IMG/VR virus record: IMGVR_UViG_3300030207_003650
Span: 1 to 25,266 of that record
Length of the DNA stretch: 25,266 bases
Direction: 5' to 3' (one strand)
From: a virus
Lineage: Duplodnaviria > Caudoviricetes
Shown: piece after piece, positions 15,727-18,243 of the stretch
Numbering within the stretch: position 1 is the stretch's first letter
How the letters are laid out: the number at the start of each line of letters is the position of its first letter
Notes under the pieces: generated by a model
Databases searched by the model: none
Seen by the model: the letters and a program-made list of their open reading frames with translations, nothing else
What the model was told of the DNA's origin: nothing
Position numbers and translations under genes: made by a program

Positions 15727-15760
15727 GTCTTCCTAGTTCTCCTGAGTACTGATGTAATGT

Positions 15761-16072
15761 TTATCCGTTTTTGCCGAAAGTTTTTTTAGTAAAGGTGACA
15801 TCGCCAGATGGATCAGAAAATGTTGTTTGCTCCCCAATGTTAAGGTCACACAGATCCATAATGAACTCGTAAGGTAGATCAAAACCTGAATCAGCCCAAT
15901 CCTCTTGAGATCTGCCAAGCTTATGGCCAATGATTGAATATAGAGATAATGTCTTTGGTTCAGCATTTGGATAACCATCTCCCCACTCAACAAAAAAATC
16001 TGTAAGCAATAATTGAATATGTAGTGCATCTAGCGTAGATCTTTCAATTGGTGTTAGCTCGTTCATTGTCAT
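15761..16072 (-). CDS. Hypothetical protein, 103 aa, with its own promoter
   Basis: GAGGA lies just before ATG 16072 (MTMNELTPI...). The in-frame ATG two codons later has better SD spacing. The track start at 16120 lies inside the promoter. Confidence 0.65.
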   Translation of the reverse strand: MTMNELTPIERSTLDALHIQLLLTDFFVEWGDGYPNAEPKTLSLYSIIGHKLGRSQEDWADSGFDLPYEFIMDLCDLNIGEQTTFSDPSGDVTFTKKTFGKNG

Positions 16073-16110
16073 GTGTCCTCTAACTAAATGTGTTTTTTCC
16101 GAACACCAAA

Positions 16111-16139
16111 ATGATATCAAGAGTATTCAGTAGATACAA
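16111..16139 (-). promoter_or_regulatory. Sigma70 promoter TTGTAT-N17-TATCAT with extended -10 TG
   Basis: -35 at 16139-16134, -10 at 16116-16111, 17-bp spacer; overlapped by the operator. Confidence 0.7.
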
Positions 16140-16150
16140 ATAGTATCTAC
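16130..16150. promoter_or_regulatory. Perfect palindromic operator GTAGATAC-AAATA-GTATCTAC
   Basis: 8-5-8 perfect inverted repeat; degenerate copies occur in the other early intergenic regions. Confidence 0.8.
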
Positions 16151-16228
16151 ATATAGGTTAATTTTAGAAAGGGTATGAAAAGTATATGGAAAGGGTGCTA
16201 AAATAGCACTATAGCGAATATGATGGTT

Positions 16229-16353
16229 CGTAAGGTATTGATTTAATTGACTAACCGCCTTCTTTGGGAGAAGGCAGTCAGACAATTTTTTAGATTTAAA
16301 TCAGTTACTTACGGAAGGTTAGATTGAAAAGTTCCCAAAAGTTCCCAGGAACT
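16229..16353. other. Putative attP: anticodon-loop core between inverted IHF sites, plus arm-type repeats
   Basis: Core GCCTTC-TTTGGGA-GAAGGC at 16257-16275. IHF-consensus (WATCARNNNNTTR) matches AATCAATACCTTA (minus, 16231-16243) and AATCAGTTACTTA (16299-16311). Direct repeat AAAGTTCCCA x2 at 16328-16347. Adjacent to int. Confidence 0.7.
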
Positions 16354-16370
16354 ATTTAAATCATCATATT

Positions 16371-16447
16371 CGGGGTATAGCGCAGCCTGGTAGCGCGCTA
16401 GCTTTGGGAGCTAGATGTCGCAGGTTCAAATCCTGCTACCCCGACCA
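16371..16447 (+). tRNA. tRNA-Pro(UGG), complete, CCA encoded
   Basis: Acceptor CGGGGTA/TACCCCG; D arm GCGC/GCGC; anticodon arm CTAGC-TTTGGGA-GCTAG (TGG at 16405-16407); T arm GCAGG-TTCAAAT-CCTGC; ACCA end. Confidence 0.97.
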
Positions 16448-16453
16448 ACCCCC

Positions 16454-17695
16454 TCATTTTACGACTCTTAAATGAGTTGGCTGCTTGTTAAGCAGTTCCT
16501 TTATCTGCTCGTTTTCCCATTCAACCGCAACGTCCTTTTTGGGTTTAAGCATCGTATTTGATGGCACGACATCAACAGAGTGATTGTAATACTCAGCCAT
16601 TGCCGGTGTTTTATGTCCCGAAAATTGTTGCCTCGATACGCCAGTGGCTTTCTCATCAAATTCAGTAATACTAGTATGCTTTAATTTGTGATAACTCAAA
16701 CCCTTTGGCCAAGGTTGGTCACTAACGCTAGGCCAAAGCTCTTTTGCCCGTCTAAACATTGAGGCAACGCCAGAGCCTTCATATCTCTCGCCATTTTCTT
16801 TGCAAAGTAAGGCTTTGGGTGCAGGTCTGCCTTTAAGCTCACACTCGGCTGCAATGCGAGTATGGCGTATTAGTGCTCTTTTTAACCATCTCTCAATATC
16901 AGGGTTAACACGTTTAACTTGCTCTTTTTGGGTCTTACTTTGTTTGATGTAAATACCGTTAGGCTTCACATCATCCACATCAAGCTGGATCATGTCCTTA
17001 CGCCTTGCAGCGAGTAAAAAAGATCCCACGACAAATAGATAGCCGATCTCTTTCAACAAAATCAGAAATTTATCCCAAGTCTCAAAATCAAAAATAGGTT
17101 TTTCTGTCTCTGGGACAATTACTTTTAACTTATCCGTTGGAACTTGGTCACAAAGCTCCCGGCGCGCTCCAAAAAACATCACTCTGCTGAACAGACCTTT
17201 TTCCTTTTTAGCCGATGAGGGTGACCCTTCCTCTTTCCAATTTGGATATCTTGATGGATCGACTGTCCGGTCTTTAATATCTGCAACACGGTTATCCACA
17301 TAATCTGTAATATCTTTCAGCTTCAATTCCGTAATGGGTTTGTTACCAAAAAATGCCGCAAGATTCTGTGCTTGTCTTTCATCTTCTTCCTTTGTGTCAT
17401 TCTCACGGGGCTTACCTTTATCGGTTAGCCGAAAAGAAGGATTAAGACGCTTGTATTGCTCCCACAGGTCGGAGAAGGTCAAACCTACTTCTGTTTGTGT
17501 TTCTTCTGTGGCTTTGTTAAAAGCCGCTGTAAGATCCGCTATGCTAACATCAGTCTTGCATAGTCTTTTCTCTCTAAACGTGCTCAGAGAACCGCTGTCG
17601 AGTTTTACGCGGTAATGTAACGCATAATACTCGCCACGCTTCTTGACCCTGGCACGGTCTGTCCTGAGACTTTTGTAAAAGTCAGTGTCTTTCAT
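16454..17695 (-). CDS. int: Tyrosine integrase
   Basis: 413 aa with catalytic R (LAARRKD), K (QSKT), HxxK (YHKLKH), GH (FSGHKT) and Y (AEYY); next to the tRNA and att site. Confidence 0.92.
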   Translation of the reverse strand: MKDTDFYKSLRTDRARVKKRGEYYALHYRVKLDSGSLSTFREKRLCKTDVSIADLTAAFNKATEETQTEVGLTFSDLWEQYKRLNPSFRLTDKGKPRENDTKEEDERQAQNLAAFFGNKPITELKLKDITDYVDNRVADIKDRTVDPSRYPNWKEEGSPSSAKKEKGLFSRVMFFGARRELCDQVPTDKLKVIVPETEKPIFDFETWDKFLILLKEIGYLFVVGSFLLAARRKDMIQLDVDDVKPNGIYIKQSKTQKEQVKRVNPDIERWLKRALIRHTRIAAECELKGRPAPKALLCKENGERYEGSGVASMFRRAKELWPSVSDQPWPKGLSYHKLKHTSITEFDEKATGVSRQQFSGHKTPAMAEYYNHSVDVVPSNTMLKPKKDVAVEWENEQIKELLNKQPTHLRVVK

Positions 17696-17940: not shown

Positions 17941-18243
17941 TTAAAAAGGTATATCATCGTCATCAAAACCGTCGGTTTTCGCGGGTTTTGCGGGCTTTTC
18001 AGTTTCTACGATAGGGGCTGTGATTTCTTTGCCGTCCTTATCCTTTTTGGGTTTACCGAGCTTTATGCTCAAAAAAGGCCCGTTCGAGCCATTTCTGATT
18101 TTACCGTTTACCCAATGTAGAACTAACAAATTTCGCTTCTCATCCTTCTCCCAACGTGAGCCGGAATAATCGTTACCGTAGTCATCTGGTTCTTTATTCT
18201 TGTTTAAGGTCTCTTCACCGTGTTTCGGGTCGTAATCACTCAT
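17941..18243 (-). CDS. Single-stranded DNA-binding-like protein
   Basis: Acidic C-terminal tip DGFDDDDIPF; lies in the recombination module. Confidence 0.7.
   Translation of the reverse strand: MSDYDPKHGEETLNKNKEPDDYGNDYSGSRWEKDEKRNLLVLHWVNGKIRNGSNGPFLSIKLGKPKKDKDGKEITAPIVETEKPAKPAKTDGFDDDDIPF

Follow-up and report, generated by a model that had tools for sequence, protein, structure and literature searches.

As Williams is said to have described in Nucleic Acids Res in 2002, an element that integrates in the anticodon loop of a transfer RNA (tRNA) gene supplies the 3' half of that tRNA. A mode of integration that leaves the target gene broken, tRNA-dependent lysogeny, has been established experimentally by Guerrero-Bustamante and Hatfull (mBio 2024, PMC10865867), and that paper names the phages Fionnbharth (K4), Cluster L, Cain (K6), Gaia (X), Gordonia BrutonGaster, OneUp and Mollymur. 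According to that paper the common cores are 8-17 bp long and lie within tRNA-Lys, tRNA-Ile2 or tRNA-Leu genes, the junctions rebuild no tRNA, lysogeny needs the cognate phage tRNA, and the phenomenon is suggested to be wider, with prophage Lj965 of Lactobacillus johnsonii lying outside the actinobacteriophages. Here we analyse a linear viral contig of 25,266 bp (hereafter the window, rated 67% complete), with relatives from marine metagenomes, in which a hairpin bearing the anticodon loop of tRNA-Pro(UGG) is followed by a complete tRNA-Pro(UGG) gene and by the 3' end of an integrase gene, int. We assign a probability of roughly 60% to the reading that positions 16160-16370 form the phage attachment site (attP) of the adjacent integrase (Int), that strands cross over within the 7-mer TTTGGGA, and that the host tRNA-Pro(UGG) gene is split without repair, the phage tRNA taking its place. 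The principle is already published, and the window is a predicted further member of the class.

The parallels with the actinobacteriophages are a tyrosine integrase, an attP that shares only a short tRNA segment and is unable to rebuild the tRNA, and a core with putative arm-type sites to either side (PMC10865867). The present case differs in that it is a prediction from sequence alone, in that the target would be tRNA-Pro, and in that the phage is marine and lambdoid (ERF, YqaJ, NinB, an S24-type repressor and IHF-consensus sites), has about 45% G+C and does not belong with the Actinobacteria. The carried tRNA is located between attP and int, starts 105-138 nt away from the core and points the same way as the gene that would be broken, whereas the Fionnbharth tRNA is placed elsewhere and has a demonstrated promoter of its own (PMC10865867). 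In the Proteobacteria a bioinformatic account of Sinorhizobium meliloti prophages has the host tRNA gene replaced by the incoming tRNA and links this to tRNA-dependent lysogeny (PMC11476347), and the same substitution idea is stated for prophages like Mesorhizobium phage vB_MloP_Lo5R7ANS (PMC12429752); hosts, integrases and tRNAs all differ from those considered here. Among the titles listed in a literature search on tRNA-dependent lysogeny, none dealt with marine phages or with tRNA-Pro.

The present system is set apart by the marine lambdoid type, the predicted tRNA-Pro target, the position of the tRNA inside the attP-int block and the co-variation of two anticodons within one integrase family. 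If confirmed, the case would carry tRNA-dependent lysogeny beyond actinobacteriophages, into marine lambdoid phages that are uncultured and to tRNA-Pro, and the joint change of anticodon in core and spare tRNA would constitute a natural record of phage retargeting. The gain is one of breadth, not of concept. An isolated anticodon hairpin between IHF sites, beside a complete cognate tRNA and int, provides a signature that can be sought in metagenomes, and compact attP-tRNA-int cassettes are suggested as integration vectors.

The anticodon-loop hairpin and the predicted attP

The features of this region are listed below. Signed positions are counted from the loop centre, and L003 and L005 are two related loci with integrases 92% and 96% identical to that of the window.

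16121-16370: intergenic stretch
16160-16255, plus strand: predicted P arm of attP; similarity to L003, L005 and contigs from other runs starts at 16147-16163, and the DNA to the left differs
16167-16181 (GAAAGGGTATGAAAA) and 16189-16203 (GAAAGGGTGCTAAAA): direct repeats in the P arm, putative arm-type sites
16229-16246 and 16296-16313: inverted repeat of 18 nt, 15/18 (83%) complementary
16231-16243, minus strand: left IHF-consensus site AATCAATACCTTA, assigned by consensus match only, at -35 to -23
16245-16263 and 16269-16287: imperfect palindrome with 19-nt arms, 16/19 (84%) complementary, around TTGGG; predicted core-type integrase sites C and C'
16256-16279, plus strand: hairpin in register with positions ~25-48 of tRNA-Pro(UGG) (anticodon stem, loop and variable loop)
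16263-16269, plus strand: TTTGGGA, identical to the tRNA-Pro(UGG) anticodon loop; predicted overlap (crossover) segment
16299-16311, plus strand: right IHF-consensus site AATCAGTTACTTA, assigned by consensus match only, invariant in the three aligned variants
16327-16346, plus strand: tandem repeat of two copies of AAAAGTTCCC, at +61 and +71; predicted P' arm
16371-16447, plus strand: tRNA-Pro(UGG) with encoded CCA, the predicted replacement tRNA (ARAGORN; Rfam RF00005, 70.9 bits)
16454-17695, minus strand: tyrosine integrase of 413 aa (Pfam PF00589, 36.8 bits, cut-off 27.1; PHROG 1 integrase)

The hairpin reads CGCCTTC-TTTGGGA-GAAGGCAGTC (16256-16279) and the anticodon arm within the tRNA gene reads CGCTAGC-TTTGGGA-GCTAGATGTC (16396-16419). 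The first-pass annotation of this DNA had held that the two share a loop while the stems differ and yet remain paired, and that no T arm or acceptor stem follows the hairpin. Checking the letters bears this out: in register the two are identical at 16 of 24 positions, and although only two of the five stem pairs are shared, neither stem has a mismatch, with six perfect pairs around the loop at 16263 in the hairpin and five around the loop at 16403 in the tRNA. Near the hairpin no second tRNA-like match was obtained with Rfam at E<=10 or with ARAGORN, which called one tRNA only, and the two programs thus agree that neither a T arm nor an acceptor comes after it. Conservation does not extend to the right stem half, which reads GAAGACGGTC in both L003 and L005.

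Chance expectations were gauged from mononucleotide shuffles of the 250-nt intergenic stretch. TTTGGGA with a stem of at least 5 bp was not recovered in 20000 shuffles (0/20000), a 24-mer with at least 16 matches to the tRNA arm was recovered in 15 of 3000, and the 7-mer alone, anywhere on the plus strand, in 483 of 20000. As single-stranded DNA, the segment 16225-16317 has a predicted folding energy of -16.3 kcal/mol as compared to -4.95 +/- 2 for shuffled sequences (z -5.68), none of the 200 shuffles being as stable.

As in classical anticodon-loop integration, crossover is predicted in a 7-nt loop, the stem would serve as a pair of inverted binding sites, and the tRNA-like sequence extends towards int. 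The difference lies past 16279, where the T arm and acceptor are missing after the predicted core, and because this 3' half is missing the tRNA gene could not be rebuilt here.

The hairpin forms the centre of the longer imperfect palindrome at 16245-16287. It had also been proposed from the first inspection that it sits between two inverted IHF-consensus sites contained in an 18-bp inverted repeat with 15 of 18 positions paired; the repeat is indeed 83% complementary, and a scan of both strands with the strict consensus WATCARNNNNTTR locates five sites in the whole window, two of which flank the hairpin in inverted orientation, one per arm of the repeat. In L005 the sole change in the left site falls in the NNNN part of the consensus. 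The motif TGAAAAGT, read from the sequence, is present in both arms. The overall arrangement is that of lambda attP, namely repeats in one arm, an IHF site, core sites inverted about a 7-nt spacer, a second IHF site, tandem repeats in the other arm and lastly the int 3' end; lambda differs in that its target is not a tRNA gene and that it carries no tRNA, and the Int and IHF sites here are predicted ones. Lambdoid genomes of this kind have attP in the stretch that separates their tail genes from the int 3' end.

At 16293-16303 in the P' arm, overlapping the right IHF consensus, the segment GATTTAAATCA resembles the T-loop segment of the tRNA, GGTTCAAATCC, with 8/11 positions matching by eye; the likeness may be accidental, or the segment may be what is left of an earlier tRNA 3' half.

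The tRNA-Pro(UGG) itself is the sole tRNA of the window. It has the same orientation as the hairpin, begins 91 nt after it, ends 6 nt from the int stop codon and is conserved in the relatives, with one change in L003 and none in L005. A search of E. coli with the phage tRNA matched the CGG and GGG proline tRNAs and not the UGG one. Between hairpin and tRNA no sigma-70-like site was scored in either of the clades described below, in what was a crude scan. Just past the tRNA, at 16462-16497 on the plus strand and antisense within the end of int, lie two terminator-like hairpins (2 as compared to 0.6 expected in shuffles), which might end the tRNA transcript.

Core and tRNA change together in two integrase clades

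The Int family is rare, with five protein clusters among 5.8 billion proteins, and in species-representative genomes a single distant relative was found among 67 candidate stretches (28% identity over 77 residues, in a metagenome-assembled genome of Melioribacteraceae). The phage collection gave no DNA match and integrases that are at most 26% identical, and for P0004, whose Int is 53% identical, there was no relative among viral contigs. The Int loci comprise eleven from metagenomes and four from viral contigs. Two of them, L004 and L006, are 99.99-100% identical to the window and are therefore the same phage and not independent. In L003 and L005 similarity runs from 16147-16163 through int, with DNA to the left that differs or has an insertion or deletion; the attP region, the tRNA and int thus make up one conserved block behind variable tail-end DNA.

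All nine loci with an Int at least 35% identical and with DNA past the int stop carry an adjacent tRNA (L003, L004, L005, L008-L011, L015 and L016). The tRNA scan covered 12 loci, eight of which have a tRNA beside int, while L006, L007 and L012 are cut inside int and L013, with an Int of 27% identity, has no tRNA beside it; the L003 tRNA comes from a separate scan, and L002, L014 and L017 lie outside the tRNA scans.

Six of these loci (L008-L011, L015 and L016) make up a second clade, with an Int 35% identical to that of the window and a tRNA-Pro(GGG) in place of tRNA-Pro(UGG). The order in this GGG clade is tail-side genes, an intergenic block of ~260 nt, the tRNA abutting int, and int itself; the block is near-identical behind three different upstream genes. 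One GGG-clade record is rated 100% complete, and in it the block lies mid-genome and this tRNA is the only one. In L008 the tRNA overlaps the int reading frame by 22 nt; overlap of a phage tRNA with a protein gene on the opposite strand is also described for Fionnbharth gene 37 (PMC10865867). The UGG and GGG tRNAs are identical at 61 of 77 positions and on this account are homologous.

In both clades the 7-mer of the core is the same as the anticodon loop of the tRNA that the phage carries, TTTGGGA with UGG and CTGGGGG with GGG, and the three positions at which the two 7-mers differ are those at which the two tRNA loops differ. When the L008 block was shuffled 20000 times, CTGGGGG turned up in 8 of the products. 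Other elements hold their place with respect to the 7-mer: the left IHF-consensus site is at -35 to -23 in both the window and L008, and the P' arm has a 10-nt tandem repeat that lies at +61/+71 in the window as compared to +62/+72 in L008, with repeat sequences that differ. For the tandem repeats of the left arm the positions are -99 and -77 (window) and -80 and -69 (L008). An ungapped comparison anchored on the 7-mer gives 8/10 and 6/10 identities in the bins over the left IHF site. The tRNA starts at +105 in the window and at +138 in L008. Since the site offsets are kept while that of the tRNA shifts by 33 nt, the layout is fixed relative to the hairpin and not to the tRNA.

The supply of codons does not explain the different anticodons, since proline codon use is nearly equal in the two clades (CCA 35% and 37%, CCC 18% and 11%). 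A switch of target accompanied by a matching tRNA is also seen between BrutonGaster (Lys-TTT) and OneUp (Ile2-CAT) (PMC10865867), to be compared with UGG and GGG here.

A further observation concerns the arm repeats. The tandem repeat of the GGG clade, two copies of TTGGGTCAAT, contains TTTGGGT on the plus strand, and the AAAAGTTCCC repeat of the window holds TTTGGGA on the minus strand; a TTTGGG-type arm motif common to both clades, in opposite orientation, is possible from these sequences.

Proposed mechanism and competing explanations

The two clades are most simply read as phages that bring along the very tRNA lost through their integration, and it is the UGG/GGG co-variation of core and tRNA that provides the main support for break-and-replace integration. 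In the mechanism that we envisage, Int together with arms bent by IHF would bring the hairpin core together with the anticodon stem-loop in the tRNA-Pro(UGG) gene of the host, or more generally of the host tRNA-Pro gene of matching anticodon, would cut on both sides of the 7-nt loop and would exchange strands across it. The left junction (attL) would then consist of the host promoter and tRNA 5' half, the P' arm, the phage tRNA and int, and the right junction (attR) of the P arm and the host tRNA 3' half. If the hairpin is the core, neither junction would form a tRNA, because the hairpin has neither T arm nor acceptor after it. In the lysogen tRNA-Pro(UGG) would come from the phage copy, which, following attL in the same direction, may be read from the promoter of the broken host gene, as its orientation and the lack of a scored promoter hint. 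The altered stem of the phage tRNA might keep it from serving as an att site, as the first inspection suggested, and the corresponding stem of Pseudomonas-type tRNA-Pro(UGG) may be CCTGC/GCAGG. Going further, one may picture a portable attP-tRNA-int cassette that is retargeted by a joint switch of core and anticodon arm (UGG to GGG), with a promoterless tRNA that is read from the captured host promoter, such that the tRNA supply of the lysogen is tied to integration; this extension is tentative and we consider it rather doubtful.

The proposal from the first inspection, that the hairpin is the attP core, that the host tRNA is broken and that the phage tRNA replaces it, is partly supported, by the architecture and by the two-clade co-variation. 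No host, bacterial attachment site (attB), attL or attR was found across genome, metagenome, viral and run contigs, leaving the crossover a predicted one, and this is the first of several points that weigh against break-and-replace integration. L003, L005 and contigs from two of the runs have GAAGACGG as the right half of the stem, so that the outermost tRNA-like pair is broken, and for this reason the perfect stem of the window may reflect symmetric protein-binding sites, not tRNA ancestry. GAAGG, which in both clades comes immediately after the 7-mer, likewise favours symmetric integrase binding. The core of the GGG clade is CCAAC-12 nt-GTTGG, with a centre of symmetry 1.5 nt off the centre of the 7-mer, and is not a clean mimic of an anticodon arm. 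TTTGGGA recurs on the minus strand at 16333, within the P' tandem repeat, which weakens the uniqueness of the 7-mer. Finally, the lysogen would depend on the phage tRNA only if the host had a single tRNA-Pro(UGG) gene.

The searches for host and junctions were as follows. Scans of metagenome and viral contigs showed the phage form only, wherever DNA past the int stop was present, and exact arm patterns in viral contigs retrieved contigs that were already known. The 17-nt hairpin core occurs in 13 stretches, 12 of which have no tRNA call and, in the 12 viewed, no tRNA-like flanks, the remaining one being a tRNA-Pro(UGG) on a viral contig of 197 kb; these matches say nothing on the host. Contigs from five public runs were compared over the region, and in each of X18, where the phage reaches a depth of about 110x, X5, X13 and X9 a single contig covers hairpin and tRNA without interruption. 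Among the matches listed (24 of 72 and 17 of 20) no contig had a loose end at 16256-16279; contigs drop rare forms, and lysogens are neither shown nor excluded by this result. Loose ends at the edges of the tRNA trace to other tRNA genes and to the GGG-clade phage, whose tRNA and integrase-side start were found on contigs in X5 and X13 with loose ends at window positions 16417 and 16448. Since GGG-clade contigs are thus found in runs with the UGG clade, the two phage clades co-occur in the same samples. An Atlas search for a clue to the host returned viral clusters only.

Classical integration would place the crossover within the phage tRNA-Pro at 16371-16447 and rebuild the host tRNA, the hairpin then being an accessory integrase/IHF site of the P arm. 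The tRNA does adjoin the int stop (6 nt away in the window, a 22-nt overlap in L008), where many elements keep a tRNA-derived att core, its loop has the same 7-mer, and gene restoration is the rule for tRNA targets according to the part of PMC4383910 cited here. The IHF sites, tandem repeats and palindrome are, however, centred on the hairpin, with offsets that are kept between clades while that of the tRNA differs by 33 nt; were the tRNA the core, every arm repeat that can be recognised would fall on one side, the other arm being int coding sequence; and no account is given of a second anticodon-loop copy upstream that switches with the tRNA anticodon in both clades. We therefore consider a crossover in the phage tRNA unlikely.

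The hairpin may instead be the attP core of a phage whose target is not a tRNA gene, with tRNA-Pro carried for translation or for escape from anticodon nucleases. Only 7 nt need be shared between attP and attB, the flanks of the core may be symmetric integrase sites, given GAAGG in both clades and a stem that varies in relatives, and phage tRNAs are discussed as counter-defence in PMC10865867. Such a target does not account for a 7-mer that equals the loop of the carried tRNA in two clades, with shuffle counts of 483/20000 and 8/20000, nor for a UGG-clade match that extends to 16/24 in the tRNA register, and proline codon use is independent of the anticodon carried, so that a target outside tRNA genes appears quite improbable.

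A regulatory or structural role of the palindrome that has nothing to do with integration (as an operator, as a terminator where convergent transcripts meet or as an origin-like structure) is very improbable: the predicted fold is strong (z -5.68) and sits between convergent transcription units, but no T run follows the stem on either strand, the terminator scan made no call, no Rfam family reaches threshold there, and the position is exactly that of a lambdoid attP next to the int 3' end, with IHF sites and arm repeats around it.

The integrase and the neighbouring genes

In the structural model of Int, residues 72-197 match the core-binding domain of lambda Int (1z1b_A, Z 13.4, root-mean-square deviation 2.0, 102 residues aligned, ~11% identity). 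Residues 15-67 are modelled as three strands and a helix, the shape of an arm-binding domain, with block-mean predicted local distance difference test (pLDDT) values of 73-85; the best structural match of this part is a weak one, to the AP2 DNA-binding domain 6sy0_A (Z 4.8). The catalytic domain is modelled poorly (pLDDT <50), and no solved structure gave a match by sequence. Residues R231, K254, H336, H361 and Y370 are invariant in 6/6 aligned sequences, with their assignment to the catalytic set Arg, Lys, His, Arg, His/Trp, Tyr made by motif position only. Where an HxLRH box is expected, residues 336-340 read HKLKH, and K339 is invariant in 6/6, down to 35% identity; going by motif position alone, Lys appears to stand in place of the second catalytic Arg. 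As modelled, Int fits a lambda-type enzyme.

The remaining genes of the window are ordered as follows.

Up to 15726, plus strand: virion and tail genes, in lambdoid order
15733-16120, minus strand: small reading frame
Beyond int, minus strand: YqaJ-type exonuclease, ERF annealing protein and S24/HTH repressor, in the same minus-strand group as the integrase
Rightward: regulatory and replication genes, NinB and a methyltransferase

Directly upstream of int, at 17941-18243 on the minus strand, lies a frame of 100 aa in the position of an excisionase gene, with no match in Pfam or PHROG. The small frame at 15733-16120 on the minus strand is likewise without a family match in Pfam or PHROG. It is missing in L003 and in contigs of runs X13, X8 and X9, and in the contigs of these three runs 15731 is joined to 16160-16163 with 17-19 other letters between. 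From this comparison of sequences the frame looks like an inserted accessory gene.

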